A stretch of 64,000 nucleotides of DNA from Clostridia bacterium (lineage in GTDB: Bacteria; Bacillota; Clostridia; TANB77; CAG-465), in NCBI GenBank assembly GCA_029256705.1, contig JAQSXK010000010.1, positions 10,317-74,316 of the forward strand, in the 5' to 3' direction. This document shows positions 18,081 through 64,000 of this stretch, piece by piece. Position 1 is the stretch's first letter. Each line of letters opens with the position of its first letter. Under the pieces are notes generated by a model. The model was not told where the DNA came from. It made no database searches and was given only the letters and a program-made list of their open reading frames with translations. Both the position numbers and the translations under genes were made by a program.

Positions 18081-18109
18081 TTGACAAAAAGTTATATTTA
18101 ATATATAAT
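18081..18109 (+). promoter_or_regulatory. consensus sigma-A promoter of the first giant paralog
   Basis: TTGACA (18081-18086), a 17-nt spacer, then TATAAT (18104-18109). Confidence 0.7.
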
Positions 18110-18149
18110 TTTAAATAAAAAACTATTTTTAAAATAGGGGGAAACTTTG

Positions 18150-21100
18150 ATGAAAAATACAAGAAGGGGTATATCTTTAATTGTACTCGTAATAACAATA
18201 ATTATAATTGCAATTCTTGCAGGTGGTGTTATTTTAACACTATCTACAAATAATCCAATAAATAGTGCTAATGAAGCAGCATTTAAGTCGGATTTAGATG
18301 CTATAGCTTCAGATTTAAATATGTATCAAACGAGTCAATATGCTAAAGCTAAAACATATAGTCCAAATAAACTAGATGCGAATGACTTATCTGCCGAATA
18401 TGATGGTGTAGTTATTGAGGGTAAAACAATTAAAGATATAATACCTATCTTATCTAAAACAGATAAATATAACGGTCAATTTGAAATTACAGATGGTAAA
18501 TTAGTATACTTAGGTACCAATAGAACACAAAAAAGATGGGCACAAGATGTTAATGTAGAGGTTATAGATGCGGATAGATTAGATGCAATAATTTCTACAG
18601 CAACAGCTTTGCCAATATCTGCTGGAACCGAGGTTGTAGCCATTATTAAAATTTCATCTAACGCTAGTATAAATAATATAAATATAACTAATAATTTAGA
18701 ATTATTAGATCATAATAATTTACCTTTAACAATTCAACCGGTATTTGAAATTGGTGTACCAAGTGGTACTGATTTAGATGCATTAAGAACTGTAGAAGTA
18801 ACAATAAAAACAGATGGACTTGCAGAGGGCATATATAAATTGAAACTCAAATCATATAGTATATCTAATATATATGATGTAACAAATTCAAAAGATATAG
18901 TATCAAGTAATTTATTTGAAATAGATAATACACCACCAACAAATCCAGAAATGTCAGCTACTCCAACAGCATGGACTAATTCAGATGTGACTGTGTCCAT
19001 AACATATCCACCAGATAGTGTAACGAAAGAATATAGTTTGGATGGAACATCATGGGATGTATATACAAATTCAATAACTGTTAGTACAAATAATGAAACA
19101 ATATATGCAAGAGCAATAGATATAGCTGGAAATCAAAGTGGACAAAGCACAATAACTGTTGCAAATATAGATAGAGAATTACCAACAGTTACCTTTGGGA
19201 CAAACGGAGGAAATAATCTACAAGTTGCTAGTACTAAAGTAATATTAACTGATATAGGTGTAAGTGGATTAGATGTAGTTTCATTTAAGTATATATGGGA
19301 CACACAAAATGTAGATGAACCAACAGGTCAGTGGAATACATTCGTAAATGATGAAGTAATAAATAAAGTAGATTCTAATGGCACATACTATTTATGGATA
19401 AAGGCATTAGATAATGCTGGAAATAGTCTAATAACTAAATCTAATGTATTTACTGTAGATAATATAGTTCCAGAAAATCCAACAATGTCAGCAAATCCAA
19501 CAACATGGACAAATGGAAATGTAACAGTAACAATTACATATTCAGATGATACAGCAATAAAAGAATATAGCACAAATGGAACAACATGGAGTGCATATAC
19601 AGCACCAGTTGTGGTTAGTACAAATAATACAACAGTATATGCAAGAGCTAGTGATGCTAGTGGAAATCAAAGTGGACAAAGTACAATAACTATTGCAAAT
19701 ATAGATAAAGTAATACCAACAGTAGCATATGCAACAAATGGAGGAACAAATTTACAAACAGCAAGTACAGTTGTTACAGCAAATGATTTAGGTGGAAGTA
19801 ATATAGCTTCATTAGAATATATATGGGATACACAAAATGCTACAACTCCATCATCTGGATGGACAGCATTTACAACTGGTAGTACAATAACAAAATCATC
19901 AATTAACGGAACATATTATCTATGGATAAGAGTAATAGATAATGCAGAAAATAATTTTGTAACTAAATCTAATGCTTTTGTAGCAGATAATACACCACCA
20001 GTAAATCCAACAATGTCGGCATCGCCAACAGGATTTACAAATGGAAATGTAACAGTAACAATTATATATCCATCTGATGCAGCAATAAAAGAATATAGTA
20101 CAAATGGAACAGCATGGAGTGCATATACAGTACCAGTTGTAGTAACTACAAATAATACAACAATTTATGCAAGAGGATCAGATGTAATTGGAAACCAAAG
20201 TGGACAAAGCACGATAACAATTGCGAATATAGATAAGGAAATACCTGTTATATCCGAAACTTTTAGTGGTGGTGCAATATATGATGATCCTACATTTTCA
20301 AACGGATATAATAATACTAATATATATAATAATTTAGGAAATGGATTAGTAACTAATACTAGGACTGTTATAAGTGATTCACCAGTAGGTTCACAATATG
20401 GCTTAGTTATAAAATCGACTGGTGCAGTAGTTCCAGGATATGGTGGATTTTATTTTGCAACTCAAACTGTAGCGAATAAGGTTTTTGTTACTAAAATAAT
20501 AGCTAAAATACCTGTAGGATATAATATAAATTGGGCATCAAATGCTATAGGTACTGAAGGTGCAGCAACTTATTGGTTAACATCACAGGCGGGTACTGGA
20601 AATTGGCAAGAATATATTTTTGAGGTAAGATGTGGATCAACGGGACCATTTTCAACAACAAATTTCTATTATTTAACTGGTGAAACAGCACCTACAGTAT
20701 CTTCACCTTTAGTGTGGACAGTCGCATATGCTAATGTATTTGATAAGGACAAATGGTCTACGTCAGATAGTGTTATGTTTAATTCAACAGATAATAAAGG
20801 AATAGTTGCTTATGGTATAAATCAAAGTTCTACTATTCAACCTACATTTACAAATTGCAGTTCTACTACAAACATAACTAAATTAATTGATAATATAACT
20901 GTTAATGGAACATATTATGTTTGGGTAAAAGATCAAGCTGGAAATGTTGTAAATAAAGCAATAACAATAAGTAATGTTGACACATTGGCACCACAAATAT
21001 CGACTGATGTAAGAAGTGTTTTAAATACAACATTTTCAAATTGGACTTTAAGTGGTGGAGCATATATAGATGGAAGTGGTCAACTGGTATTACCAAATAC

Positions 21101-21674
21101 AGGTTCTAGAGCAGATTCTCCATATTTACAAGTAGATGGAAATCCTTGGATACATGAATTGGATGCTACTACAAGTCAAAGTTCACCTTATTTTACTCCT
21201 GCTGGTGGCGTGCTTATTGGTAGTTCATACTTTGACTCATCGTACAATACTGCAGTATCAAATAATACATACAGTGGTAATGGCTATGCAGAAAAGATAT
21301 TAATAAATGGAACCGCGCATGCGAGATGGGATGGATGGTCTGGATATGGTCCTAACGTAAAATATGTAAAAGTTTTAGTTACTGTGGATGCATATTATTC
21401 TAATGCACCAGTGACTTGCTATAATGTGATATTTACAAGTTCAAATGTTACAAGTCCTAGTAAGAAAGTAATAGTTACAGTTACAGATGATATAAGTGGA
21501 ATAAAAACTAAAAAATGGCTTAGTGGTTCTAAAACCGTAAATGATTTTCAAAGTGCAGGAACAATATTTGATACTGAATTTACAGTAACTGTTAATGGAA
21601 CATACACAATATATACAGAGGATAATGCAGGAAATAAAACAGTAAGACAAGTAATTATTACACAAATAGGATAA
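18150..21674 (+). CDS. giant paralog P1: pilin-like N-terminal module, Ig-like A/B repeats, a jelly-roll-like module and a unique C-terminal domain (function unknown)
   Basis: This is a long uninterrupted ORF with a GGGGG SD 8 nt before the ATG at 18150. The N-terminus is MKNTRRG-ISLIVLVITIIIIAILAGGVILTL. There are three A units (WTN..VTV...YARA.D.AGNQSGQSTIT..NID) and two B units (TNGG.NLQ.AST...IWDTQN...GTYYLWIK..DNAGN). Confidence 0.88.
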   Translation: MKNTRRGISLIVLVITIIIIAILAGGVILTLSTNNPINSANEAAFKSDLDAIASDLNMYQTSQYAKAKTYSPNKLDANDLSAEYDGVVIEGKTIKDIIPILSKTDKYNGQFEITDGKLVYLGTNRTQKRWAQDVNVEVIDADRLDAIISTATALPISAGTEVVAIIKISSNASINNINITNNLELLDHNNLPLTIQPVFEIGVPSGTDLDALRTVEVTIKTDGLAEGIYKLKLKSYSISNIYDVTNSKDIVSSNLFEIDNTPPTNPEMSATPTAWTNSDVTVSITYPPDSVTKEYSLDGTSWDVYTNSITVSTNNETIYARAIDIAGNQSGQSTITVANIDRELPTVTFGTNGGNNLQVASTKVILTDIGVSGLDVVSFKYIWDTQNVDEPTGQWNTFVNDEVINKVDSNGTYYLWIKALDNAGNSLITKSNVFTVDNIVPENPTMSANPTTWTNGNVTVTITYSDDTAIKEYSTNGTTWSAYTAPVVVSTNNTTVYARASDASGNQSGQSTITIANIDKVIPTVAYATNGGTNLQTASTVVTANDLGGSNIASLEYIWDTQNATTPSSGWTAFTTGSTITKSSINGTYYLWIRVIDNAENNFVTKSNAFVADNTPPVNPTMSASPTGFTNGNVTVTIIYPSDAAIKEYSTNGTAWSAYTVPVVVTTNNTTIYARGSDVIGNQSGQSTITIANIDKEIPVISETFSGGAIYDDPTFSNGYNNTNIYNNLGNGLVTNTRTVISDSPVGSQYGLVIKSTGAVVPGYGGFYFATQTVANKVFVTKIIAKIPVGYNINWASNAIGTEGAATYWLTSQAGTGNWQEYIFEVRCGSTGPFSTTNFYYLTGETAPTVSSPLVWTVAYANVFDKDKWSTSDSVMFNSTDNKGIVAYGINQSSTIQPTFTNCSSTTNITKLIDNITVNGTYYVWVKDQAGNVVNKAITISNVDTLAPQISTDVRSVLNTTFSNWTLSGGAYIDGSGQLVLPNTGSRADSPYLQVDGNPWIHELDATTSQSSPYFTPAGGVLIGSSYFDSSYNTAVSNNTYSGNGYAEKILINGTAHARWDGWSGYGPNVKYVKVLVTVDAYYSNAPVTCYNVIFTSSNVTSPSKKVIVTVTDDISGIKTKKWLSGSKTVNDFQSAGTIFDTEFTVTVNGTYTIYTEDNAGNKTVRQVIITQIG

Positions 21675-21767: not shown

Positions 21768-24700
21768 ATGATAAACAAAAGAGAAGGGATATCTTTAATT
21801 GTACTTGTTATAACAATAATAATTGTTATTATACTTGCAGGAGGTGTCATTTTGACACTTTCTGCAAACAACCCAATAAGCAGCGCAAATGAAGCTGTAT
21901 TTAAGTCAGACTTAGATGCAATAGCTTCGGATTTAAATATGTATCAGAGTAGTCAATATTCTAAAGTTAAAGCATATAGTCCAGATAGACTAAATGCAAA
22001 TGATTTAACCGCAGAATATGATGGAACAGTTATTGAAAATAAAACAATAAAAGATATAATACCAGTTTTATCTAAAACAGATAAATACAATGGACAGTTT
22101 GAGATTATAAATGGTAAATTAGTATATTTAGGTACAAATAGAACGCAAAAAAGATGGGCCCAAGATGTTAATGTAGAAGTTATAGATGCAGATAGATTAG
22201 ATGCAATAATTTCTACAGCAACAACTTTGCCAATATCTGCGGGAACTGATGTTGTAGCAACAATAAAAATTTCATCTAATGCTAGTATAAATAATATAAA
22301 ATTGACTAACAATTTAGAATTGTTAGATAACAATAATATAGCAGTTGCAACTCAACCAGTATTTGAAATTGGCACACCAACTGGTACAGAGTTGGATACA
22401 TTAAGAACTGTAGAGGTAACAATAAAAACAGATGAACTTGCAGAGGGTATATATAAATTGAAACTTAAATCATATAGTATATCTAATATATATGATGTAA
22501 CAAATTCAAAGGATATAGTAGCAGGAGAATTATTTGAAATCGATAATACACCACCAGCAAATCCAGAAATGTCAGTCACTTCGACAGGATGGACTAATTC
22601 AGATGTGATTGTATCAGTAACATATCCATCAGATAGTGTAAAGAAAGAATACAGTTTAGATGGAACTACTTGGAACACATATACAGATTCAATAACAGTT
22701 AATACAAATAATACGACAATATATTCAAGAGCAATAGATATAGCTGGAAACCAAAGTGGGCAAAGTACAATGACTATTGTAAATATAGATAAAGAATCAC
22801 CAATTTCTTTATTTGGTACAAATGGAGGAAATAATCTACAAGTTGCTAGTACTAAAGTAACATTAACTGATGTAGGAGTAAGTGGATTAGATATAACCTC
22901 ATTAAAGTATATATGGGATGCACAAAATGTAGATGAACCAACAGGTGAGTGGACTACATTTGTAAACAATGAAATTATAAGTAAAGCAGATTCAAATGGA
23001 ACATATTACTTGTGGATAAAAGCTTTAGACAATGCAGGAAATAGCATAATAACAAAATCTAATGCATTTGTTGTAGATAATATAGTTCCAGAAAATCCAA
23101 CATTGACAGCAATACCAACAGCCTGGACAAATACAAATGTAACTGTAACAATAACATACCCTTCAGATGCTTTTGTTAAAGAATATAGCATAGACGGTAT
23201 AACTTGGAATGCATACACAGAGGTAGTATTAATAACTACAAATAATACAACAATTTATACAAGAGCAACAGATGCAAGTGGAAATCAAAGCGGACAGAGT
23301 ACATTAACTGTGGCAAATATAGATAAAATAATGCCAACAGCTACATATGTAACAAATGGAGGAATAGATTTACAAACAGCAAGTACAGTAGTAACAGCAA
23401 GTGATTTAGGTGGAAGTAATATAATATCATTAGAATATATTTGGGATACACAAAATAGTGTGACACCTATTAATGGTTGGACATCATTTACTAGTGGTAG
23501 TACGATTACAAAGTCTGGAATGACAGGAACATATTACTTATGGATAAAAGTAGTAGATAATGCAGGAAATATTCTAGTAACAAAATCTAATGCTTTTGTA
23601 GCAGATAATACACCACCAGCTAATCCAACAATATCAGCCTCACCAACAGCATGGACAAATGGAAATGTAACAGTAACAATAACATATCCAGCTGATGCAT
23701 CTGTAAAAGAATACAGTACAAATGGAACAACATGGAGTGTATATACAGCACCAGTCGTAATAATTACAAATAATACAACAGTTTATGCAAGAGCAGCAGA
23801 TATGAGCGGAAACCAAAGTGGGCAAAGTACAATAACTGTAGCAAATATAGATAAAATATTACCTACCGTAACATATGGTACAAACGGAGGAACAAATCTA
23901 AAAACAGCTAGCACAACAGTAATAGCTAATGATTTAGGTGGAAGTAATATTAGTTCATCAGAATATATTTGGGATACACAAAATAGTGTAACTCCTTCAT
24001 CTGGTTGGACAGTATTTACTAGTGGTAATACAATAACAAAATCTATGGTTACAGGATCATATTACTTATGGGTAAAAGTAGTAGATAATGCTGGTAACAA
24101 TTTTGTTACAAAATCTAATGTATTTGTATTAGATAATACGCCACCAATAAATCCAGCAATGTCAGCATCTCCTACAGGATGGACAAATGGAAATGTAACA
24201 ATAACAATCACATATCCAGTTGATATGTCTGTAAAAGAGTATAGTACAAATGGTACAACGTGGAGTGCATATACAGCGCCAGTTGTAGTAAGTACAAATA
24301 ATACAACAGTTTACGCAAGAGGTAGTGATGCGAGTGGAAATCAAAGTGGACAGAGTACAATAACTGTAACAAATATTGAAAGGATAGCCCCATCGGTACC
24401 TACAGTAAACTTTAATGGATATACTCCAGGTACATGGACTTCAGCAGCAATAACACTTAATTTATCTTCTACTGATGCTAACTCAGGAATAAATAAATAT
24501 CAATGGTCTAATAATGGAACAACATGGAATGATTTCCAAAGTTCTTGGATATACAATTATGATACAGCACAAACTCCTTGTTTTAGGTCAATAGATAATG
24601 CTGGTAATGTAAGTGCTGCAACTAGTTATTATAATATTTTAAGAGATGCAACTGCACCAACATATACAAGTTATAGTATAACTAATATTACAAGTGATAC

Positions 24701-25499
24701 TTATGATGTATTCGTATATGGTGTATCTGATGCAGGAAGTGGAGTAAATAGAGTACAATTTCCAAATTGGACTGCACTTAATGGTCAAGACGATATGGTA
24801 TCAAGTTTTGAAACAAATTCTACTATAACTGGACAAAACTTAGGTAGTGGAACTTGGAAATATACTGTAAAAAGATCTGATCATAATAATGAATATGGTG
24901 TTTATTTAACACATTTATATTTATATGATAATCTAGGAAATGTTGCAGGATTTGCATTAAACAATACAACTTTAGTTGATGCAAGTATAGTAGCAAAATT
25001 TACTTTAACTGCAGCACAAGAAATATTTAATGGTAGTACTTCATATTATACGGCTGGTGAAGTATCTAATAACTATACAATAGAATTTGATGCTCAGCCT
25101 TCAGATACAATAGATGTATTTTCAGAGAATAATACACTTATAGGTCATACAGGTTATAAACATAGATTTATTATTTTGGAATCACATGGAGGTGGAGTAC
25201 CTAATGCTGGCCTTGGTGTAGATTTAGGAACAAATGGTATAGTTTTGGTTGCACATAGTAACGGATATTATCATTCATTACTTACTTACTACTCTAACCT
25301 TAATGCATGGAATCATTATAAAATAGTAGTAGAAAATAAAATTCCAAGACTATATATAAATGGAGCACTTATTAAAACAGGTTATCCGCCACTATCTTCA
25401 TATACAAAATTGTATACATTATTTTCGATTGGAACAGGTGCATATGGTAATTATATAGGTAGAGCTAATAATTTTGTGTTTTATAATACTGTTAAATAA
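21768..25499 (+). CDS. giant paralog P2: pilin-like N-terminal module, 4 A and 3 B Ig-like units, a GBS Bsp-like repeat and a LamG-like C-terminal domain
   Basis: An AGGAGG SD precedes the start. The N-terminus is MINKREG-ISLIVLVITIIIVIILAGGVILTL. The Bsp-like motif is VQFPNWTALNGQDDMV...YLTHLYLYDNLGN. The C-terminal ~170 aa (…IPRLYINGALIKTG…) has the look of a concanavalin/LamG jelly roll. Confidence 0.88.
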   Translation: MINKREGISLIVLVITIIIVIILAGGVILTLSANNPISSANEAVFKSDLDAIASDLNMYQSSQYSKVKAYSPDRLNANDLTAEYDGTVIENKTIKDIIPVLSKTDKYNGQFEIINGKLVYLGTNRTQKRWAQDVNVEVIDADRLDAIISTATTLPISAGTDVVATIKISSNASINNIKLTNNLELLDNNNIAVATQPVFEIGTPTGTELDTLRTVEVTIKTDELAEGIYKLKLKSYSISNIYDVTNSKDIVAGELFEIDNTPPANPEMSVTSTGWTNSDVIVSVTYPSDSVKKEYSLDGTTWNTYTDSITVNTNNTTIYSRAIDIAGNQSGQSTMTIVNIDKESPISLFGTNGGNNLQVASTKVTLTDVGVSGLDITSLKYIWDAQNVDEPTGEWTTFVNNEIISKADSNGTYYLWIKALDNAGNSIITKSNAFVVDNIVPENPTLTAIPTAWTNTNVTVTITYPSDAFVKEYSIDGITWNAYTEVVLITTNNTTIYTRATDASGNQSGQSTLTVANIDKIMPTATYVTNGGIDLQTASTVVTASDLGGSNIISLEYIWDTQNSVTPINGWTSFTSGSTITKSGMTGTYYLWIKVVDNAGNILVTKSNAFVADNTPPANPTISASPTAWTNGNVTVTITYPADASVKEYSTNGTTWSVYTAPVVIITNNTTVYARAADMSGNQSGQSTITVANIDKILPTVTYGTNGGTNLKTASTTVIANDLGGSNISSSEYIWDTQNSVTPSSGWTVFTSGNTITKSMVTGSYYLWVKVVDNAGNNFVTKSNVFVLDNTPPINPAMSASPTGWTNGNVTITITYPVDMSVKEYSTNGTTWSAYTAPVVVSTNNTTVYARGSDASGNQSGQSTITVTNIERIAPSVPTVNFNGYTPGTWTSAAITLNLSSTDANSGINKYQWSNNGTTWNDFQSSWIYNYDTAQTPCFRSIDNAGNVSAATSYYNILRDATAPTYTSYSITNITSDTYDVFVYGVSDAGSGVNRVQFPNWTALNGQDDMVSSFETNSTITGQNLGSGTWKYTVKRSDHNNEYGVYLTHLYLYDNLGNVAGFALNNTTLVDASIVAKFTLTAAQEIFNGSTSYYTAGEVSNNYTIEFDAQPSDTIDVFSENNTLIGHTGYKHRFIILESHGGGVPNAGLGVDLGTNGIVLVAHSNGYYHSLLTYYSNLNAWNHYKIVVENKIPRLYINGALIKTGYPPLSSYTKLYTLFSIGTGAYGNYIGRANNFVFYNTVK

Positions 25500-25558: not shown

Positions 25559-25589
25559 GTTAATTTTTAATATATAATTAAATAAACAC

Positions 25590-25618
25590 TTGATATTTCT
25601 TTTAATACATTATAAAAT
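25590..25618 (+). promoter_or_regulatory. candidate promoter of cassette 1 (156-aa gene plus P3); a duplicate lies at 30007-30035
   Basis: TTGATA, a 17-nt spacer, then TAAAAT. The same arrangement recurs in the duplicated upstream region. Confidence 0.5.
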
Positions 25619-25666
25619 ATAAACATGTAAAATGAATACATAAATAAATTTATAGGAGGATTTAAA

Positions 25667-26137
25667 ATGAATAATAAAGGTCAAAATCAGATTAGGTTAG
25701 TAATTTTAGGGGTTGTTCTTGTTATTGCAATAATAGTTGTTATTGTAGCTATTAATAAAAACAACGCAAATTCAGTGAATGATGGAAATAAAACGGATAA
25801 TACAAAAGTAAATTATACAGAAACAAATGATGGGACTAAGGTAAATACAAGCGAAGAAGTATCTCAAGATAAAAGCGTTAAAGGTGTATTATTAGAACAA
25901 AGTAAAATAGTATATACTAATGGAACATCTAAGTTAACATCAAAAGTAACAAATGATAGTATAGCAAAAGATAATTTAAGATTTAAAGTAAAATTTATAG
26001 CAAATGATGGAACTGTAATGGCAGAAGCTGTAGGATATGTAGGAAAAATAAAAGCGAATGAAACAAAATATATTGATTCATACATAACAATAGATACTTC
26101 TAATTCGAAAAATGTTACTTACGAAATAATGGAATAA
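25667..26137 (+). CDS. membrane-anchored small beta-sandwich protein (156 aa), copy 1
   Basis: An AGGAGG SD precedes the start. There is an N-terminal TM segment (LVILGVVLVIAIIVVIVAI), a low-complexity N/T/D linker and a ~90-aa beta-rich domain that resembles FxLYD/DUF4352-type domains. Confidence 0.75.
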   Translation: MNNKGQNQIRLVILGVVLVIAIIVVIVAINKNNANSVNDGNKTDNTKVNYTETNDGTKVNTSEEVSQDKSVKGVLLEQSKIVYTNGTSKLTSKVTNDSIAKDNLRFKVKFIANDGTVMAEAVGYVGKIKANETKYIDSYITIDTSNSKNVTYEIME

Positions 26138-26176
26138 TATTAAATTAGAAAGTAATAAATATTAAGAGGTGAAGTT

Positions 26177-29100
26177 GTGAATTATAAATATAACAAAATA
26201 GGTATTTCATTAATTGTATTAGTGATAACAATTATAGTAATAATAATACTTGCAGGAGCTGTTATTTTGACACTATCTGCAAATAATCCAATAAATAGTG
26301 CAAATGAGGCGGTATTTAAGTCAGATTTAGATGCAATTGAATCGGACTTGAGTTTGTACGTATCTAGTGAGTATGCAAATACTACTATGTTTAGTCCAGA
26401 TAATTTAAATGCAGATGATTTATCTGTAGAATATAATGGTACTGTTATTGTTGGCAAAACAATAAAAGATATAATACCTGCATTATCTACTACAAATAAA
26501 TATAATGGGCAATTCGAAGTGGTAAACGGAAAGTTAGTTTATGTAGGAACAGATAGAACAAAAAAAAGATGGGCTCAAGATGTTAATGTAGAAGTTATAG
26601 ATGCAGATAGATTAGATGCAATAATTTCTACAGCAACAACTTTACCAATATCTGCTGGAACAGATGTTGTGGCTACAATAAAAATTTCATCTAACGCTAG
26701 TATAAATAATATAAATTTAACGAGTAAACTAGAGTTATTAGATAAAAATAATGTGTTAGTTCCAGTTCAACCATTATTTGAAATTGGCACACCAACTGGG
26801 ACTGGCTTAGATACATTAAGAACTGTAGATGTAACAATAAAAACAGATACACTTACAGAAGGTATATATAAATTAAAATTGAAAGCGTATAGTATATCTA
26901 ATATATATGATGTGGTAATAGAAACTGATATAGTAACAAGTGAGTTATTTGAAATAGATAATACACCACCAACAAATCCAGAAATGTCAGTTACTCCAAC
27001 TGGATGGACTAATTTAGAGGTATTTGTGTCAATTACATACCCATCAGATAGTGTAGTAAAAGAATATAGTTTAGATGGAATAATATGGAATGTATATACA
27101 AATTCAATAACAGTTAATACAAACAGTACAACAATATATGCAAGATCAACAGATATAGCTGGAAACCAAAGTGGACAAAGTACAATAACTATTGCGAATA
27201 TAGATAGAGAATCACCAACAGTTGTATATGGAACTAATGGTGGAGATGATCTACAAGTGGCAAGTACTACAGTAATAGTAACTGATGTAGGGGTAAGCGG
27301 AGTAGATATGACATCATTGAATTATATTTGGGATACACAAAATACTGTAGAACCTGCTAATGGTTGGATAGTATTTGAAAATGGAAATAATATAACTAAA
27401 TCTGGAATTACAGGTACATATTATTTATGGATAAAGGCTACAGACAATACAGGGAATAGTGTAATAACTAAGTCTAATGCTTTTATAGCAGATAATACTG
27501 CTCCGGAAAATCCAGTTATGTCAGCTTCATATACAGGTTGGACAAACGGAAATGTAAATGTAACAATAACATATTCTTCTGATGCAGCATTAAAAGAATA
27601 TAGTACAGACGCTTCAACATGGAATACATACACAGCTCCAGTTGTAATAAGTACAAATAATACAACAGTATATGCAAGGGCAACAGATGCAAGCGGAAAC
27701 CAAAGTGATCAAAGTACAATGACTATAGCAAATATAGATAAAACATTACCAACAGTAACATTTAGCCCAAGTAATATCGCTATGACAAATAATGATGTTT
27801 CAATATCTGTAAGTGCAGTAGATGCTGGCGGAAGCAATATGAAAAAATGGAGATATAGATTAAGTAGTAATAATGGATCTACATATGGTGATTGGCAAGG
27901 TGTAAATACTGGATATAATCCAACTCAGACTTATACACTTGGTGCTGGTATAACAGTTCCAGTTCTTGTAGGTTTACCTATGAATTTAAAACAAAATCAA
28001 AAATATATGCTAGAATTTGATTATAGTTGCTTAAGCGGTACTAATATATTTAATGTAGATTTGTGGCCAGATGATTTACCAGAGGCACATATAAATGCTA
28101 CTACTGCTTTACAGCATTATATTTGGAATAATATAACTTCTAGTAGTATAAATATGAATACCGCAAATTTAAGAATTTTTAATGATATTATAAGACCAAA
28201 CCCAACAGATGTATATATAAATAATATTAATCTATATCCAAAAGAAACTCATAGTATATTATTAAATAGTACTGGTGATTGGAAAATACAAATAGAAGCA
28301 TATGACAATGCAAATAATAGTTCGATATTTACTTCAAATTTATTTAGTATAGATAAAATAGCACCAACAAATCCAACAATGGCAGCTTCACCTACAGGAT
28401 GGACAAATGGAAACGTAGCAGTTACAATAACATATCCAGGGGATTCTGTAATTAAACAATATAGTTTTGATACAATAACTTGGAATACATATACATCAAC
28501 TGTCACAGTATCTAATAATACAACAGTATATGCAAGAACTAGTGATGCTAGTGGAAACCAAAGTGGACAAAGTACACTAACAGTATCAAATATAGATAAA
28601 GTAGCGCCAACGGTAATAGCTACATATAAAAAAGCAGATACAACATCATACGTTTCAGATTCTTGGACTAATCAATCTGTAACTATTACAGCTGCAGGAA
28701 ATGATGGAAGTGGAAGTGGTGTAAATAGGTACCAAATTACATATGATGGATCAACATATTATGATTTACCAAACGGGACAGTTACACTAAGTACTACTGG
28801 AAGAACTGGGGTTTGGGTGAGAGCTATAGATAATGTAGAAAATATAGGGCCTAATTCATCAACATACTTGGTTGCAATAGATAAATTAGCCCCAACCGTT
28901 TCATATAGCACTAATGGAGCAACAAATGTGCAAGTAGCAAGTACTCAAATAACTGTAAATGATGCTGCTAGTTTAAGTGGATTAAATACATCTAGTTTAC
29001 AATATGTGTGGGATGTACAAAATGTAACTACTCCAACAGTTGGATGGGCAAATTTTACAAATGATTCTATTTTAACAAAATTAGGTGTAACTGGAATATA

Positions 29101-29887
29101 TTATTTATGGATTAAAGCGTCAGATAATGCAGGTAACATTGTTGTTTCAAAATCAAATTCATTTTCGATTGTTTCATATTATGCATTTAGTTATACTGGA
29201 AATTATCAAACTTGGACAGCACCTTCGACTGGTAAAATAAAAATTGAAACTTGGGGTGCTATGGGTGGAACACCTATGGGGGATAATTACTATTCGGGTA
29301 AAGGTGGATACGCGTCAGGTGAATTAAATGTTAATGCAGGAGATTTATTATATCTATATGTAGGTGCATATGGTATTAACGGTGGTTGGAACGGTGGCGG
29401 TAAAAATAGTTATCAAGGTGGAAATAACAATTTTACCGGTGGTGGAGCTTCAGATGTTAGAAAAAACGGTATGGCACTATCAAATAGAATAATAGTTGCA
29501 GGTGGCGGAGGAGCCAGCGGTGGATGGCAATCAAGAGGAGGAGATGGTGGAGGTCTGACTGGTAATAGTGGAACTTCAATATCAACTTATACAGGAAATA
29601 GATTTGGTACAGGTGGAACGCAAGCATCTGGTGGAACTGGAGGAACAAGTACTACTTATTCAAACGGTAATAACGGAATATTAGGAATAGGTGGAGATGC
29701 TTATGCTGCTTCTGGCGGCGGAGGCGGAGGCTATTATGGCGGCGGAGGCGGTACAGGAATCAATGCTGATGATGGTGGCGGCGGAGGCGGCTCATCATAT
29801 ATTGGAGGTGTTCTTAATGGAACAACTAGTATAGGTGCTAATACCGATTTTAATGGTAAAATTTCAATAACATATATAATACCATAA
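26177..29887 (+). CDS. giant paralog P3: pilin-like N-terminal module, Ig-like units and a glycine-rich C-terminal domain
   Basis: A GTG start follows aagaggtga. The N-terminus is VNYKYNKIG-ISLIVLVITIIVIIILAGAVILTL. The C-terminus reads YAFSYTGNYQTWTAPSTGKIKIETWGAMGG...GGGASDVRKNG.ALSNRIIVAGGGG... Confidence 0.88.
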   Translation: MNYKYNKIGISLIVLVITIIVIIILAGAVILTLSANNPINSANEAVFKSDLDAIESDLSLYVSSEYANTTMFSPDNLNADDLSVEYNGTVIVGKTIKDIIPALSTTNKYNGQFEVVNGKLVYVGTDRTKKRWAQDVNVEVIDADRLDAIISTATTLPISAGTDVVATIKISSNASINNINLTSKLELLDKNNVLVPVQPLFEIGTPTGTGLDTLRTVDVTIKTDTLTEGIYKLKLKAYSISNIYDVVIETDIVTSELFEIDNTPPTNPEMSVTPTGWTNLEVFVSITYPSDSVVKEYSLDGIIWNVYTNSITVNTNSTTIYARSTDIAGNQSGQSTITIANIDRESPTVVYGTNGGDDLQVASTTVIVTDVGVSGVDMTSLNYIWDTQNTVEPANGWIVFENGNNITKSGITGTYYLWIKATDNTGNSVITKSNAFIADNTAPENPVMSASYTGWTNGNVNVTITYSSDAALKEYSTDASTWNTYTAPVVISTNNTTVYARATDASGNQSDQSTMTIANIDKTLPTVTFSPSNIAMTNNDVSISVSAVDAGGSNMKKWRYRLSSNNGSTYGDWQGVNTGYNPTQTYTLGAGITVPVLVGLPMNLKQNQKYMLEFDYSCLSGTNIFNVDLWPDDLPEAHINATTALQHYIWNNITSSSINMNTANLRIFNDIIRPNPTDVYINNINLYPKETHSILLNSTGDWKIQIEAYDNANNSSIFTSNLFSIDKIAPTNPTMAASPTGWTNGNVAVTITYPGDSVIKQYSFDTITWNTYTSTVTVSNNTTVYARTSDASGNQSGQSTLTVSNIDKVAPTVIATYKKADTTSYVSDSWTNQSVTITAAGNDGSGSGVNRYQITYDGSTYYDLPNGTVTLSTTGRTGVWVRAIDNVENIGPNSSTYLVAIDKLAPTVSYSTNGATNVQVASTQITVNDAASLSGLNTSSLQYVWDVQNVTTPTVGWANFTNDSILTKLGVTGIYYLWIKASDNAGNIVVSKSNSFSIVSYYAFSYTGNYQTWTAPSTGKIKIETWGAMGGTPMGDNYYSGKGGYASGELNVNAGDLLYLYVGAYGINGGWNGGGKNSYQGGNNNFTGGGASDVRKNGMALSNRIIVAGGGGASGGWQSRGGDGGGLTGNSGTSISTYTGNRFGTGGTQASGGTGGTSTTYSNGNNGILGIGGDAYAASGGGGGGYYGGGGGTGINADDGGGGGGSSYIGGVLNGTTSIGANTDFNGKISITYIIP

Positions 29888-29943: not shown

Positions 29944-30084
29944 TAGTTATATGTTTAAGTTTCTATATTATTTTTTAATATATTTAGCACTAAATTGAAT
30001 AAACACTTGATATTTTTTTTAATACATTGTAAAATATAAACGTGTAAAATGAATACATAAATAAATTTATAGGAGGATTTAAAA

Positions 30085-30555
30085 ATGAGTAATAAAGGTC
30101 AAAATCAAATGAGGTTAGTAATTTTAGGAGTTGTTCTTGTTATTGCAATAATAGTTGTTATTGTAGCTATTAATAAAAACAATGCAAATTCAGTGAATGA
30201 AGGAAATAAAACAGATAATACAAAAGTAAATTACACAGAAACAAATGATGGAACTAAGGTAAATACAAGTGAAGAAGTATCTCAAGATAAAAATGTTAAA
30301 GGTGTGCTATTAGAACAAAGTAAAATAGTATATACAAATGGAACATCTAAGTTAACATCTAAGGTAACAAACGATAGTACAGCAAAAGATAATTTAAGAT
30401 TTAAAGTAAAATTTATAGCAAATGATGGAACTGTAATGGCAGAAGCTGTAGGATATGTAGGAAAAATAAAAGCAAATGAAACAAAATATATTGATTCATA
30501 CATAACAATAGATACTTCTAATTCAAAAAATGTTACTTATGAAATAATGGAGTAG
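30085..30555 (+). CDS. membrane-anchored small beta-sandwich protein (156 aa), copy 2
   Basis: It differs from copy 1 at 5 of 156 residues (N2S, I9M, D39E, S69N, I98T). The SD and upstream leader are the same. Confidence 0.75.
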   Translation: MSNKGQNQMRLVILGVVLVIAIIVVIVAINKNNANSVNEGNKTDNTKVNYTETNDGTKVNTSEEVSQDKNVKGVLLEQSKIVYTNGTSKLTSKVTNDSTAKDNLRFKVKFIANDGTVMAEAVGYVGKIKANETKYIDSYITIDTSNSKNVTYEIME

Positions 30556-30586
30556 TCAATCAAAATGAACTTTAAGAGGTGAAGTT

Positions 30587-33500
30587 GTGAATTACAAATA
30601 TAATAAAATAGGTATATCATTAATAGTATTGGTTATAACAATAATAGTTATTGTTATTCTTGCAGGTGCTGTTATTTTAACATTATCTGCAAATAATCCA
30701 ATAAATAGTGCGAATGAGTCGGTATTTAAGTCAGATTTAGATGCAATTGAATCGGACTTAAGTTTGTATGTAGCTAGTGAGTATGCAAATACTACTTCGT
30801 TTAGTCCAGATAGTCTAAATGCAGACGATTTATCTGTAGATTATAATGGTAATGTTATTGTAGGTAAAACAATAAAAGATATAATACCTGCATTATCTAC
30901 TACAAATAAATATAATGGGCAATTTGAAGTGGTAAACGGAAAATTAGTTTATGTAGGAACAGATAGAACAAAAAAAAGATGGGCACAGGAAACTAATGTG
31001 GATGTTATAGATGCAGATAGATTAGATGCAATAATTTCTACAACAACAACTTTGCCAATATCTGCAGGAACAGATGTTGTAACTACAATAAAAATTTCAT
31101 CTAATGCTAGTATAAATAATATAAATTTAACAAGTAAACTAGAGTTATTAGATAAAAATAATGTATCAGTTACAGTTCAACCATTATTTGAAATTGGCAG
31201 TCCAACTGGAACTGGGTTAGATACATTAAGAACTGTAGAAGTGACAATAAAAACAGATGGGCTCGCAGAAGGTATATATAAATTAAAATTGAAACCATAT
31301 AGCATATCTAATATATATGATGTAACAAACTCAATAGATATAATTAGTAGTGAATTATTTGAAATAGATAATACGCCACCAACAAATCCAGAAATGTCAT
31401 CTACTCCAACAGGATGGACAGATTTAGATGTTTCAATATCCATAACATATCCATTAGATAGTGTAACAAAAGAATATAGTTTAGATGGTACATCATGGAA
31501 TGTATATACAAATCCAATAACAGTTAATACAAATAATACAACAATATATGCAAGAGCGATAGATATAGCTGGAAATCAAAGTGGACAAAGTACAATAACT
31601 ATTGCAAATATAGATAGAGAATCACCAACAGTTATATTCGGTACAAATGGGGGAAATAATCTACAAGTTGCTAGTACTAAAGTAACAGTAACTGATGTAG
31701 GTGTAAGTAATGTAGATATAACTTCATTAAAGTATATATGGGATACACAAAATGTAGATGAACCAACAGGTCAGTGGAATACATTTGTAAATGGTGAAGT
31801 AATAAATAAAGTAGATTCTAATGGCACATATTATTTATGGATAAAAGCATTAGATAATACAGGAAATAGTGTAACAACTAAATCTAACGCATTTGCTGTA
31901 GATAATATAATTCCTGTAAATCCAACAATGTCAGCAAGTCCTACAGGATGGACAAATGGAAATGTAACAGTAACAATTACATATTCAGCTGATGCAGTTG
32001 TTAAAGAATATAGTACAGATACTTTAACATGGAGTGCATATATAGCACCAGTTGTGATTAGTACAAATAATACAACAGTATATGCAAGAGCTAGTGATGC
32101 TAGTGGAAATCAAAGTGAGCAAAGTACTATGACTGTAGCAAATATAGATAAAGTAATACCAGTAATAACTGCTGAAAATGATGGCTCAACAACATCAAGT
32201 ATAACAGTCAAAGCAACTGCGTCGGATTTAGGTGGAAGTGCACTTAATAACGGTTCATACCAATATTCAAAGGATAATGGTGTTACATGGACGGCACTTA
32301 CTAATGTAACAAGTTATACATTTAGTTCACTAACAACAGGAGCATATCAATGTAAAGTAAAGGTATTGGATAACGCAGGTAACAGTGCTATATCTAATAC
32401 ATTAGGAATATCAACAGTAGCTGTTGGAACGATAACAATGTCAGCAAGTCCAACAACTTGGACAAATGGCAATGTAACTGTAACTATAGCATATCCAGCA
32501 GAAGTTGTAACAAAACAATATAGTTTGAATGGTACAACATGGTCTACATATACATCAGCAGTAATAGTTACAACAAATGGAACATTATATGCTAGGGGAT
32601 ATGATGCAGGAAATAATCAAACAACGCAGGCAACAATAACAATAGCTAATATAGATAAAACGTTACCAGTAGTTTCAAACTCTGTAAGTGGAGGTATGAT
32701 ATTTACAGATCAAAAGTTTCAAAATGGAATAAATAATACTTATGTATATAATAATCTTGGTAATGGTACAGTAACTAATACACGTATTGCAATGGCAGAT
32801 TCACCTACAGGTTCTGGATATGGATTGGAAGTAAGAACAACAGGAACACCATCTCCAGGATGGGGAGGATTCTATTTTGCAAATATGGCATCTGCAAATA
32901 AGGTGTTTATTACGAAAATTATAGCAAGTATACCAGTAGGATATACAATAAATTGGGCTTCAAATGCATTTGGTGATGGTGGTACAATCACATGGTTAAC
33001 ATCTCAAGATGGAACAGGAACTTGGCAAGAATATGTATGTAAAGTTACTTGTGGTCCAACAGGAGCATTTAGTTCAACTAACTTTTATTACTTAACTGGA
33101 GGAGCAACACCAACATCATCCAATCCTTTAGTTTGGAGAGTTGCATACGCAACAGTATTTGATACAACATTATGGAAAACAACAAGTAATGCTATAGTGA
33201 GTGCAACAGATACATCTGGAATAGTAGGATATGGAATAAACCAAAGTAGTGTAACTGCACCTACATTTACAAATATAAGTGCAAGAGTAAACTTTGCAAC
33301 AGTATTTGAAAATATTACTGTAAATGGAACATACTACGTATGGCTAAAAGATCAAGCTGGTAATGTAACAAATACTTCAATTTTAGTAAATTATATTGAT
33401 AATATTGTACCAACTGTAACATATGGAACAAATGGTGGTACAGTAGTAACAGCAAGTACAACTGTTACAATAAATGATACAGGTGGAAGTAATTTAAATA

Positions 33501-34525
33501 CAAGTACATTACAATATGTATGGGATATACAAAATGTAACAACACCAGTATCAGGATGGAATACATTTACCAATGGAACAACAATAACTAATTCTGGTAC
33601 AGGAACTTATTATTTGTGGATAAAAGGATCAGATAATGCAGGAAACAATGTAATTACAAAATCTAATGCTTTTGTAACAGTACCTTCAGTAAACCAGACA
33701 TTTGGTTATAATGGAAGTTATCAAACATGGACAGTACCTTATACTGGAACATATAAACTTGAAGTTTGGGGAGCACAAGGCGGAAACAATTGGAATATTG
33801 TTGGTGGTCTAGGTGCATATAGTAGTGGAAATATAAATTTAACTGCTGGAACTATTCTTTATGTATATGTTGGTGGCCAAAATGGTTATAATGGTGGAGG
33901 AACTGCTGGAACAGGAAGTGCTTGTGAAAATGGTGCAAACGGTGGTGGAGCAACTGACATAAGACTTTCTGGAACGGCTCTTGCTAATAGAATCATAGTA
34001 GCTGGCGGCGGAGGCGGTGCTAGTGGAGGTGGCTCAGGACATTACCAAAATGCTACAGGATATAATGGTGCTTATGGTGGTGGCGGAAGTGGAATTGGTA
34101 TAGGAGCACCTGCTTTATATCACGGTGCCGGAGGATCTGCAGGAGGAACAGGTGCAGGAAATGGAGGATCTGCTTCAGGTGGAGATATAACTAGTATGTC
34201 AACATATGCAAAAGGATACAACGGAGGAAATGGATCACTAGGTCAAGGTGGATCTGGTGGAGGAGTATATGGAGATAGATTAGATTACTATGGCCCAGGC
34301 TCTGGCGGCGGAGGCGGAGGCGGCTACTACGGTGGTGGTGGCGGCGGCGGCGGTGCCGGCTGGTGGGGTTCTAACGGTGGTGCTGGTGGTGGCGGTTCTT
34401 GCTATATTGGTGGTGTAACATCAGGTCAAACAATAGCTGGAAATGCTACAATGCCAGGTACAGCTGGTGGTTCAATAGTTGGAAATAGTGGTAATGGTTA
34501 TGTTAAAATAACTAATGCACCATAA
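30587..34525 (+). CDS. giant paralog P4: pilin-like N-terminal module, Ig-like units, a jelly-roll-like module shared with P1 and an expanded glycine-rich C-terminal domain
   Basis: The GTG start and SD match those of P3. The N-terminal ~500 aa are closely similar to P3. The internal block NSVSGGMIFTDQKF...VWRVAYATVFD parallels P1 ETFSGGAIYDDPTF...VWTVAYANVFD. The C-terminal domain contains G7 and G8 runs. Confidence 0.88.
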   Translation: MNYKYNKIGISLIVLVITIIVIVILAGAVILTLSANNPINSANESVFKSDLDAIESDLSLYVASEYANTTSFSPDSLNADDLSVDYNGNVIVGKTIKDIIPALSTTNKYNGQFEVVNGKLVYVGTDRTKKRWAQETNVDVIDADRLDAIISTTTTLPISAGTDVVTTIKISSNASINNINLTSKLELLDKNNVSVTVQPLFEIGSPTGTGLDTLRTVEVTIKTDGLAEGIYKLKLKPYSISNIYDVTNSIDIISSELFEIDNTPPTNPEMSSTPTGWTDLDVSISITYPLDSVTKEYSLDGTSWNVYTNPITVNTNNTTIYARAIDIAGNQSGQSTITIANIDRESPTVIFGTNGGNNLQVASTKVTVTDVGVSNVDITSLKYIWDTQNVDEPTGQWNTFVNGEVINKVDSNGTYYLWIKALDNTGNSVTTKSNAFAVDNIIPVNPTMSASPTGWTNGNVTVTITYSADAVVKEYSTDTLTWSAYIAPVVISTNNTTVYARASDASGNQSEQSTMTVANIDKVIPVITAENDGSTTSSITVKATASDLGGSALNNGSYQYSKDNGVTWTALTNVTSYTFSSLTTGAYQCKVKVLDNAGNSAISNTLGISTVAVGTITMSASPTTWTNGNVTVTIAYPAEVVTKQYSLNGTTWSTYTSAVIVTTNGTLYARGYDAGNNQTTQATITIANIDKTLPVVSNSVSGGMIFTDQKFQNGINNTYVYNNLGNGTVTNTRIAMADSPTGSGYGLEVRTTGTPSPGWGGFYFANMASANKVFITKIIASIPVGYTINWASNAFGDGGTITWLTSQDGTGTWQEYVCKVTCGPTGAFSSTNFYYLTGGATPTSSNPLVWRVAYATVFDTTLWKTTSNAIVSATDTSGIVGYGINQSSVTAPTFTNISARVNFATVFENITVNGTYYVWLKDQAGNVTNTSILVNYIDNIVPTVTYGTNGGTVVTASTTVTINDTGGSNLNTSTLQYVWDIQNVTTPVSGWNTFTNGTTITNSGTGTYYLWIKGSDNAGNNVITKSNAFVTVPSVNQTFGYNGSYQTWTVPYTGTYKLEVWGAQGGNNWNIVGGLGAYSSGNINLTAGTILYVYVGGQNGYNGGGTAGTGSACENGANGGGATDIRLSGTALANRIIVAGGGGGASGGGSGHYQNATGYNGAYGGGGSGIGIGAPALYHGAGGSAGGTGAGNGGSASGGDITSMSTYAKGYNGGNGSLGQGGSGGGVYGDRLDYYGPGSGGGGGGGYYGGGGGGGGAGWWGSNGGAGGGGSCYIGGVTSGQTIAGNATMPGTAGGSIVGNSGNGYVKITNAP

Positions 34526-34573: not shown

Positions 34574-34690
34574 AAATAAAATAATAAATACTTTTTATTT
34601 TATTTAATGTTGACAAACCAAAATTATACTGTTATAATAATAACTGCGTTTTAAAAAGAGATTCCATAAATAATTATTTAGGAGGTTGTC

Positions 34691-63400: not shown

Positions 63401-64000
63401 AGTAGTATAACAGATCCTATAAACAGAAAAATTACTTATAACTATAATGCACAAGGTTTGTTATATGAAGTTATAGGGGTAAATGGAAAATCTACTTATT
63501 ACGAATATAATGAAAATAGTTATATGACATGTATAAAAGAAGCTAATGATGCAAATCAAATAATAACAGTGCAAACTATGACATATATAGAAGATAGTGT
63601 AAGCGGATATAGAGTAGCCACTTTAAAAGATGAATCAGGAAAGATAGATACATATTCATATAATACAATTGAAAAATCTACAACTATAACAGATCAAAAT
63701 AATAGGATAACAAAAAAGTATTTCGATACAAATGGGTACACTATAAAAATAGTAGAACCTAGTAATTTAGAAACTTTAATTACATATGATACTTTAAATG
63801 GTATTAATAAATATGGAGAGGTAAAATCTAAAACTGAAATAACAGGGCAAATTACTACTTATGATAGAGATTCTAATGGTAATGTTATAAAACAAACTAA
63901 TTCTGATGGTAGTTATAAGACTTATGAATATAACACAAAAAATAGTTTAACTAAGGAAATAGATGAAAATCAAAACATAACACAAAATTTTTATTCTGTA
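60428..64000 (+). CDS. Rhs/YD-repeat polymorphic toxin precursor, N-terminal 1191 aa (3' end lies outside the window)
   Basis: This gene is absent from the ORF track because it has no stop in the window. A GGGAGG SD precedes the start. I read the frame through and spot-checked it at four places. It encodes a signal peptide (MKKRIGVIFFTLIVCSLLITLL), an FN3-like domain, three beta-helix-like modules, the Rhs N-terminal hallmark (LKFTRTYNS...GKGWTFGF), and then YD repeats (G....Y.YD..G.L). Confidence 0.85.
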   Translation, partial: MKKRIGVIFFTLIVCSLLITLLNENNDLIGIGQVETSQAEQTEELTVKYKTTNSIAISWEDMQIPETVVKYNIYKNEQFITTITDKSYIYASLISDTAYNFKVDFLTAEDSIVMSKSINNIMPAKTISTFNQNMILEKDTYYITATTIPAGITIDVAAGSIIKFYSGSTLTINGTLKLNGTDLEKVIFTSIADIGNGCDANYYWKQVIVNSTGVFETNNAIIRYGGINTDWYLNSYGIINFENTQVSDLRSYGTSLNSGSIEIINSNIQNTNNFNNLTNIDIQNSTLYEIKITYNNSIQENNTKILNNSITRGMTYTPNMYSTSIIQNNITTGGAGSSLRIYLANANKNIIKDFSNNANSEVFQYGEIQILSMPTVSDMIFPKAIYYVDSITIPEGITMDIPAGSMIKIGDSRRLTINGTLKLNGNEEKKVIITSIRDVGYGAVYYFDQILVGYTGNFEATDAIIRYGGTYNYKYLDSYGTVKFRNTQINNTYAGSTFNSGNVEIINSNIEKLINFNNLTNINIQSSLIFDASIVYNNQTQQNNINILSNTITNGIKFTPNILSQPNIKDNITTSYYYPINFTCTNSNANIFKNISNNRNLNYIFYESINLNGTINNLKLTNNNEYMLGNIIIPVDKLLEIESKTKCKLEQYSLITVDGKLVINGTNQDNVLLTNITDNTSSRNYRGIKINSTGVALINNMVMRYCGYNGYPSSPGIENNGQLYLVNSSITNIQSYNALVYNTSVTDQILKYNYIGGSTTTNIPLEASYNYWGAANGPRRYNPVTKNYEGSGSSVDTNTTWNPYNTTFLKAEIILDTHINDTLNMERQHFGEAGINGYTGNYSKTYDDLNIVIPNIDLKFTRTYNSKNTGSDIIGKGWTFGFSSKVEVNLLDSNIVYVYLPNGSINTFTKQGDGTFISNDSRNILSIESGRYVLTTKEQTKYRFNDNKYLYSILDKYGNNTSITVDTTGKITNIYDYSGRVYTIAYTNNKVSSITDPINRKITYNYNAQGLLYEVIGVNGKSTYYEYNENSYMTCIKEANDANQIITVQTMTYIEDSVSGYRVATLKDESGKIDTYSYNTIEKSTTITDQNNRITKKYFDTNGYTIKIVEPSNLETLITYDTLNGINKYGEVKSKTEITGQITTYDRDSNGNVIKQTNSDGSYKTYEYNTKNSLTKEIDENQNITQNFYSV

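Follow-up and report, generated by a model that had tools for sequence, protein, structure and literature searches.

The DNA considered here is a stretch of 64,000 nucleotides (nt), hereafter called the window, from contig JAQSXK010000010.1 of an uncultured soil Clostridia-type bacterium (assembly GCA_029256705.1). It contains an open reading frame (ORF), P3, that encodes a protein of 1,236 amino acids (aa) with a compact glycine-rich domain (GRD) of the Pfam family PF12810 at its C-terminal end, and the sequence of this gene is present in three independent soil metagenome runs. The ORF has a ribosome-binding site of good quality ahead of its GTG start codon, and its product can be divided into a carrier module, here called the N-module, a stalk and a Gly-rich tip. 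The features of P3 are listed below, with positions counted in the window.

26177..29887, + strand: P3, the whole ORF, 1,236 aa, GTG start with AAGAGGTGAAG ahead of it; carrier module, stalk and Gly-rich tip
26177..26203, + strand: putative class III (prepilin-type) leader MNYKYNKIG, which ends in a conserved Gly; predicted cleavage
26204..26620, + strand: pilin-like N-module (aa 10-148), a helix with the pattern ISLIVLVITIIVIIILAG…NNPI…A.EA.FKS and then a small β-sheet
26621..29170, + strand: stalk (aa 149-998), about nine β-rich modules in the motif map
29171..29884, + strand: TNF-like/glycine-rich (ALK_LTK_GRD) domain, aa 999-1236, with the Pfam envelope at aa 1017-1213, nt 29225-29815
29171..29500, + strand: N-terminal half of the GRD (domain residues 1-110), seven predicted strands of a TNF-like sandwich (DSSP) with the first Gly motifs, WGAMGG, GKGG, GINGGWNGGG and GGGASD, between them
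29501..29767, + strand: Gly-rich core (domain residues 111-199), modelled with no helix and almost no strand, at a block-mean predicted local distance difference test score (pLDDT) of 89-98
29768..29884, + strand: predicted closing β-strands (SSYIGGV … GKISITYIIP); the protein ends 3 residues past the last strand

Positions 29171-29887 (+ strand) translate into the last 238 codons of P3 followed by the stop codon, and the encoded peptide reads YAFSYTGNYQTWTAPSTGKIKIETWGAMGG ... LLYLYVGAYG ... GGGASDVRKNGMALSNRIIVAGGGGASGG ... SSYIGGV ... ISITYIIP. This is exactly the Gly-rich end of about 240 residues that was quoted in an earlier note on this DNA, and the segment is confirmed as it had been described there. 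Glycine accounts for 73 of its 238 residues (30.7%). The corresponding values are 6.0% for the first 998 residues of P3 and 6.5% for a set of 15 housekeeping ORFs from the window. The G+C content of the DNA encoding the GRD is 41.6%, and that of the window is 28.3%. Tandem Repeats Finder detected just two trivial arrays of 15-19 nt in this DNA, and the lack of a tandem repeat at the DNA level indicates that the Gly richness is a property of the protein sequence rather than the product of a slipped DNA repeat.

A search of P3 against Pfam with hmmscan gave one match, to PF12810 (ALK_LTK_GRD), which covers residues 1017-1213 and profile positions 6-203 of 243 (E=8.6e-26, 91.8 bits) and scores far over the gathering cutoff of 24.5 bits. 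The membership in this family, which the earlier note had proposed from a motif pattern, is thereby borne out, and the motifs of this pattern correspond to nearly invariant columns in an alignment of 115 GRD homologues (alignment A1). P4, a paralogue of P3 in the window, also matches the family (E=1.6e-10, 41.8 bits, profile 7-241). A search of 5.8 billion proteins gave 1,597 matches to the P3 GRD. The best 120 of these contain PF12810 without exception (120/120), at an identity to P3 of at most about 50%, and nearly all of them align to query residues 5-235, which shows that the P3 GRD is one complete domain. The homologue searches list matches of up to 417 aa for the 238-aa GRD query and up to 254 aa for the 148-aa N-module query, corresponding to less than about 1.75 times the query length. 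Giant homologues are outside the reach of these protein searches and were found via genome loci and a search of representative sequences. Since P3 has no match to a kinase or EGF domain in Pfam, it is not a member of the ALK/LTK receptor family but shares a domain with these receptors. We conclude that the C-terminal domain of P3 genuinely belongs to PF12810, as one of its compact members.

The kinship with the TNF-like and Gly-rich domain of ALK and LTK becomes visible at the level of profiles. The single sequence of the P3 GRD matched ALK only weakly among the PDB sequences (E about 0.24, not significant), while the A1 profile identified ALK (1.9e-14), C. elegans SCD-2 (6.3e-12) and LTK (9.1e-11), and nothing else. 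The match spans the entire domain including the closing strands (profile 47-274, ALK chain residues 76-340). Six families in PHROG also match the GRD, with the best value for phrog_7388 (E=8.6e-36). A tblastn search of phage genomes with the full GRD gave no match, probably due to low-complexity masking, and a search with its first 116 residues gave two weak matches. In a C. difficile phage, a gene annotated as 'glycine rich protein' is located between the tail-fibre/XkdX genes and the holin gene.

The AlphaFold2 model of the P3 GRD, with alignment A1 as input, has a pLDDT of 94.3 and a predicted TM-score (pTM) of 0.92. According to DSSP, it contains ten β-strands that are contributed by both ends of the sequence, and the model confidently predicts a TNF-like β-sandwich carrying a Gly-rich subdomain. 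A Foldseek search of the PDB with this model, the comparison with ALK structures that the earlier note had proposed as a check, placed ALK/LTK 'TG'/GRD entries on all of ranks 1-21 (E 5e-8 to 7.5e-6, probability 1.00), followed at rank 22 by a fibre protein of cyanophage Pam3 (E=0.018, TM 0.27). In BFVD, 113 viral matches were found below 1e-3, the best of which has E=1e-17, TM 0.80 and 2.9 Å as its root-mean-square deviation (rmsd). These matches include proteins from siphoviruses, myoviruses, cyanophages, a Caulobacter phage and giant viruses.

The Gly-rich subdomain of ALK contains 14 tabulated polyglycine-II (PGII) segments (PMC13243192). For comparison, the ALK fragment was aligned to the P3-numbered hidden Markov model (HMM) and the 14 published segments were marked, with an uncertainty of 1-2 in the residue numbering. 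All 14 segments in this list align to Gly-rich segments of P3, and ten of the 14 have their counterparts in the Gly-rich core at domain residues 111-199. Two long insertions in ALK are absent from the P3 GRD. The alignment thus suggests that the P3 GRD may adopt PGII geometry. The earlier note had contrasted a folded domain with PGII helices to plain low-complexity sequence; the folded domain is upheld by the confident model, and the PGII part indirectly by the alignment, from which the geometry is predicted.

The N-module is accepted as 'pilin-like', which is its best description on indirect evidence. The junction between the leader and the hydrophobic segment reads MNYKYNKIG|ISLIVLVITIIVIIILAGAVILTL, that is, a short basic leader and a Gly followed by at least about 20 hydrophobic residues. 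Gly9 is kept in at least 90% of 47 homologues, as are the residues that follow it (alignment A2). The motif of the N-module begins with G|ISLIVLV…, and G|ISLIV was found in 99 of 136 representatives. The AlphaFold2 model of the N-module (pLDDT 85.8) shows a predicted helix of 58 residues (11-68) that is kinked at NNP, followed by five short strands. A search of the PDB sequences with the N-module profile gave only sub-threshold matches, to Geopilin (E=0.16) and PilE1 (E=2.7), along with spurious matches to RAD23. Three homologues carry the JGI product name PulG and one PilE.

The most telling evidence for a pilin-like N-module is the presence of small homologues inside a type IV pilus operon of a related metagenome-assembled genome (MAG). 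In the Clostridia MAG GCA_028692955.1 (locus L003), two proteins of 134-135 aa (P0157 and P0195) have the same N-module and are encoded within a full type IV pilus operon, in which the gene order is a PilN-domain gene, the pilins, an A24 prepilin peptidase, two T2SSE ATPase genes and T2SSF. A second locus, L068, also links homologues of the N-module to pilus genes. The earlier note had called the GRD the terminal module of a pilin-like giant protein. Its terminal position stands, and the term pilin-like is supported by the homologues in the pilus operon but not by the searches with pilin HMMs or the fold search, as described below. As a separate observation, the type IV pilus operon at L003 (6590-16697 of JAQUWH010000003.1) is complete and lies directly 3' of the spoIIIA operon, and all of its pilins, a third pilin-like protein (NKKGISLMSMVIYVV…) among them, start with G|ISL… and lack Glu5.

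The stalk of P3 contains three OmpL47-type barrel/Ig-like repeats, which start near aa 265, 443 and 730, two repeats with a YYLWIK end and an insert of about 180 aa (aa 521-700) without family assignment. NF047446 matches the stalk in four stretches (E=9.7e-30). The window encodes four paralogues of P3, and a small protein is encoded directly upstream of P3 and P4.

18147-21674, + strand: P1, with the same N-module and the same kind of stalk; C-terminal end without family assignment
21768-25499, + strand: P2, with the same N-module and kind of stalk; C-terminal GBS_Bsp-like domain and a weak Laminin_G_3 match
25667-26137 and 30085-30555, + strand: two copies of a small protein of 156 aa, directly upstream of P3 and P4, respectively; 97% identical
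30587..34525, + strand: P4, 1,312 aa, a paralogue that shares the N-module and terminates in a second GRD of greater length (Pfam aa 1053-1309, nt 33743-34513)
41703-44195, + strand: P5, 830 aa, with the N-module RKGISLISLVIIIVIMIILAG… and a β-propeller of RCC1 repeats (PF25390, E=8.9e-255; 11 RCC1 repeats); outside the four-gene cluster

All five proteins share the N-module, with a basic leader of 7-9 residues that ends in Gly, and the four giants P1-P4 have OmpL47-type/Ig-like repeats behind it. The GRDs of P3 and P4 are 53% identical, half of the identical positions are Gly, and only 59 of 227 aligned positions are identical non-Gly residues. A tandem duplication (25560-27759 and 29968-32169; 87.4% nucleotide identity over 2,213 nt) takes in the gene for the 156-aa protein and the spacer, and extends over roughly the first 1.58 kb of P3 and P4. 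On the 3' side of the duplicated part, the two genes differ in that their repeat modules are arranged differently and the GRDs have diverged. The locus evolves by duplication and exchange of distal parts.

The 156-aa protein has a single transmembrane helix at its N-terminus and is β-rich towards the C-terminus, and it gave neither a PHROG match nor a significant match to Pfam or another family. In other MAGs (L005, L006, L008, L055, L073), homologues are encoded upstream of N-module giants at a distance of 30-40 nt, irrespective of whether a GRD is present, and the protein may serve as a partner or assembly factor for the giants. A role as a GRD-specific chaperone, in analogy with Pam3 gp25, was considered and rejected because the homologues also precede giants without a GRD.

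The cluster is flanked in the window by the housekeeping genes der, pfk, PBP1A and lexA, with no phage genes, and a prophage origin of P3 was rejected on the basis of these flanks. Two perfect sigma-70 consensus sites (TTGACA-17-TATAAT) are located on the + strand, at 18081-18109 upstream of P1 and at 34610-34638 upstream of the PBP1A gene. Overall, scans of the window were at or near the level of shuffled sequence, with 101 promoter-like sites compared to 111.5 expected and six terminator-like sites compared to 4.0, and the Rfam search of the window identified one tRNA and no rRNA. At the far end, an open-ended ORF of at least 1,190 aa runs on the + strand from about 60425 to the end of the window at 64000. 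A signal peptide, an FN3-like region and β-helix-like repeats can be recognised in it, together with repeats of the RHS/YD type (…YNYNAQGLLYEV…YEYNENS…), and it probably encodes an Rhs-family surface or toxin-delivery protein.

The N-module is widespread beyond the window. A scan with one genome per species identified at least 411 relatives, all in uncultured Clostridia/Bacillota MAGs. The nearest genome is the MAG OH_SBrB_108, which encodes an orthologue of P4 that is 95.8% identical and none of P3. The 81 related loci contain 134 N-module ORFs, and 92 complete ORFs have a length of 400-1,500 residues. An exhaustive search of 1.84 billion representatives with the N-module profile gave 457 clusters at E<=1e-30 and 3,009 at E<=1e-10, and the module was always placed at the N-terminus. 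A GRD is present on eight of the 134 N-module ORFs in the related loci, where it is the most C-terminal module in all eight, and on 12 of the 136 best representatives. In P0031 and P0092, a GRD also follows a canonical N_methyl pilin module.

We consider it probable that P3 is a modular type IV pilin-like adhesin, in which a stalk of β-domains holds out a distal TNF-like/Gly-rich tip for ligand binding. The short, basic, Gly-ended leader and the hydrophobic helix would target the protein to the membrane, and a prepilin peptidase probably cuts the leader. The pilin module would then anchor P3 in a type IV filament or at its tip, or otherwise in the membrane. The tandem β-domains of about 850 residues would serve as a stalk, and the terminal GRD would bind a ligand on another surface, such as a cell, a polymer or a particle. 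The location of the GRD at the free end of this stalk, where it is interchangeable with lectin-like and propeller modules, makes a ligand-binding tip its most likely role. Analogy with phage proteins, namely Pam3 gp24 and the C. difficile phage 'glycine rich protein', also points to binding.

The use of a pilin as carrier for an added binding module is a documented design of adhesins, known from the modular type IV pilins (PMC8179133). The catalogue of such proteins comprises more than 1,200 members, and its Dataset S1 contains the architectures IPR012902-PF12810 (two proteins), IPR012902-PF12810 x3 (one) and IPR012902-RCC1 (one), along with a PilY1 protein with PF12810 (PMC8179133). The fusion of a pilin with PF12810 is thus already catalogued, and P3 adds to a known design. 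Such pilins combine a pilin module with a domain unrelated to pilus biology, and P3 has this composition through its OmpL47-type repeats and PF12810, on the condition that the N-module can be counted as a pilin module. The TNF-like and Gly-rich domains of cyanophage Pam3 gp24, which resemble C. elegans ALK, constitute a distal fibre tip with a proposed role in recognition of the host receptor (PMC9608196). The earlier note had stated that bacterial members of the family have no assigned function. This agrees with the literature searched, in which no function is assigned to a cellular bacterial GRD, and is refined by Pam3 gp24 on the phage side.

Several observations weigh against this interpretation. 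Position +5 of the predicted mature N-module is a nearly invariant Val, and Glu5 is absent (alignment A2). The pilin models Pfam PF07963 (N_methyl) and NCBIfam TIGR02532 matched neither the whole proteins (E<=0.01) nor their first 70 residues (E<=1), and the Foldseek search of the PDB with the N-module gave no significant match to a pilin (best E 1.7; C. difficile PilW at E 2.4-7). Genes for pilus assembly are absent from the 64-kb window and from 75 of 77 related loci. Five paralogues in the window, and ten to at least 20 loci in some related MAGs, are more than one filament tip would easily accommodate. As for the GRD, the TM-scores of the model to ALK and LTK in Foldseek are just 0.43-0.54, and the six matching PHROG families are all annotated as 'unknown function'. 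The role of Pam3 gp24 in receptor binding is itself a proposal based on its structure (PMC9608196).

As regards Glu5, the GspK-type tip pseudopilins of bacteria and the pilins of archaea also lack this residue. Its absence from P3 thus weighs against a canonical major pilin, but not against membership in the superfamily.

The main rival explanation concerns the anchoring, a membrane-anchored fibril rather than a filament subunit, and leaves the role of the tip unchanged. The N-module could be an uncleaved signal-anchor, or a cleaved pseudopilin that does not polymerise, with the stalk carrying the GRD through the cell wall as a single fibril. This arrangement is distinctly less probable than the main interpretation. 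It is supported by the lack of pilus machinery near the cluster and near 75 of 77 related loci, the missing Glu5, the many paralogues per genome and the lack of a pilin HMM or fold match. A stalk of about 850 residues would also make display on a filament unnecessary. However, the small N-module proteins of 134-135 aa are encoded next to the prepilin peptidase gene within a complete type IV pilus operon, and a short basic leader with an almost invariant terminal Gly is the hallmark of processing by this peptidase. Moreover, orphan genes for modular pilins located far from the machinery are usual for minor pilins of type IV filaments (PMC8179133). These features are more consistent with a pilin-like adhesin whose leader would be cleaved and which may be incorporated into a filament.

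A broader reading of the data is more speculative, and we put it forward only tentatively. The Glu5-less 'G|ISLIVLV…NNPI' module could represent an undescribed, lineage-specific route of surface display in uncultured soil and gut Clostridia, with ten to at least 20 proteins with exchangeable tips per genome, and the GRD could be an ancient mobile tip module. In such a system, the type IV filament machinery or its peptidase may handle large proteins with GRD, lectin-like or RCC1 tips, and the TNF-like/Gly-rich module may be common to bacterial pili, phage fibres and, by transfer, the animal receptors ALK and LTK. A parallel is found in some archaea, where class III signal peptides are used for many surface proteins.

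Two further explanations concern the function of the GRD. It appears improbable that the domain binds a non-biological or bulk surface, such as ice, a mineral or a crystalline polymer, via a flat PGII face in the manner of the snow-flea antifreeze protein. PGII bundles do offer flat and regular faces, the organism occurs in soil metagenomes, and the antifreeze protein has been grouped with ALK and S16 gp38 as a Gly-rich polyproline-II (PPII) bundle (PMC13243192). However, the GRD is homologous to modules in ALK/LTK and phage fibres, for which the ligands are proteins or host receptors, and not to the antifreeze protein. The non-Gly positions also differ strongly between the GRDs of P3 and P4, which fits a variable specificity better than one fixed bulk surface.

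Even less credit can be given to the C-terminal domain as a toxic effector of a polymorphic-toxin-like system, in which the small upstream protein would be an immunity protein or partner. Such a system would fit paralogues that share their N-terminal parts and vary at their C-terminal ends, here with 2.2 kb at the 5' side that are 87% identical and divergent 3' parts, and the pairing of a small gene with both P3 and P4. However, no enzymatic or toxin family was matched in Pfam, NCBIfam or PHROG, and the other C-terminal modules on the carrier have binding-type folds (Laminin_G_3, RCC1 propeller). The small protein is located upstream, is membrane-anchored, is 97% identical between the copies despite a GRD identity of just 53%, and also accompanies N-module giants without a GRD. 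Finally, the end of P3 might be nothing more than low-complexity sequence rich in Gly, or the remains of a prophage tail fibre, lacking a folded domain or a role in the cell. This would agree with the Gly content and with the strongest structural matches being phage proteins, but its likelihood is negligible: the low-complexity part is refuted by the Pfam score, the confident fold prediction and the lack of tandem repeats, and the remnant is at odds with an intact ORF of 1,236 aa that has housekeeping flanks and no phage genes and recurs with the same sequence in three independent soil runs.

PF12810 contains very many bacterial and viral sequences, yet studies of its members cover only the animal receptors and a single phage fibre. 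P3 provides a functional hint for this very large and uncharacterised domain family, and it also draws attention to a pilin-like carrier family that is missed by current models. The placement of the GRD, which forms the free end of a long stalk borne by a pilin-like carrier and is interchangeable with lectin-like and β-propeller modules, argues for a general role in ligand binding at a distance from the cell. The failure of current pilin models to identify the carrier family implies that type IV pilin-like proteins are undercounted in the annotation of these Clostridia. With its 238 residues and no disulfide-rich insertions, the compact GRD could serve as a model for the folding of the PGII lattice and for ligand recognition. 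If the Glu5-less module does represent a separate route of display, bacterial GRD proteins would be a tractable system for learning the binding partners of this fold.

Among the known systems, the 'TG' region of ALK and LTK (PF12810; PDB 7NX1, 7LRZ, 7N00, 7LS0, 7LIR) belongs to the same Pfam family as the P3 GRD, is related to it by profile homology over the whole domain and has the same predicted fold class. The domain is extracellular in both cases, and the region that binds the ligand in the receptors is the same module that is named here for the tip of P3. The P3 GRD is minimal, with 238 aa compared to about 300 in ALK/LTK, and it forms the free C-terminal end of its bacterial surface protein, whereas the GRD of ALK/LTK precedes an EGF-like domain, a transmembrane helix and a kinase. 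The cytokine ligands of ALK and LTK, ALKAL1/2, are animal proteins, and the ligand of P3 must therefore differ.

The closest structural relatives of the P3 GRD are found in phage and giant-virus proteins (BFVD H9YQ77, A0A8S5SE10, A0A8S5QTR7; PHROG 7388, 5811, 1589), with TM 0.80, rmsd 2.9-3.6 Å and 31-35% identity. In the best PHROG profiles, the GRD is N-terminal (positions 4-217 of 455), while it is C-terminal in P3, and these proteins are virion or viral proteins without assigned function, while P3 is a chromosomal surface protein. Pam3 gp24 (PDB 7YFW) resembles P3 in that it contains a TNF-like β-sandwich, the strands of which extend into a Gly-rich lattice at the end of a long presenting structure, and its tip has conserved Gly stems and variable tips (PMC9608196). 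However, gp24 is joined by a dedicated chaperone in a 3:3 complex and is attached to the baseplate via an α-helical bundle (PMC9608196), whereas P3 is mounted on a pilin-like module and a stalk of β-domains. The adhesin gp38 of Salmonella phage S16 (PDB 6F45) also has a PGII sandwich at the tip of the fibre, where it serves in receptor recognition, but with a three-layer lattice of 10 motifs that is supported by a β-helix rather than a TNF-like sandwich. It is absent from the Foldseek PDB matches of the P3 GRD.

The modular pilins, such as PilB (vWA module) and PilC (lectin module) of Streptococcus sanguinis, share with P3 the combination of an N-terminal carrier and a grafted binding module (PMC8179133, PMC9934059). 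The carrier of P3 differs from theirs in that it escapes models of the IPR012902/PF07963 type and contains Val rather than Glu at position +5. P3 also has a stalk of about 850 residues between the carrier and the tip, and with 1,236 aa it exceeds the protein of 860 residues that was described as an 'extreme case' among the modular pilins (PMC8179133).

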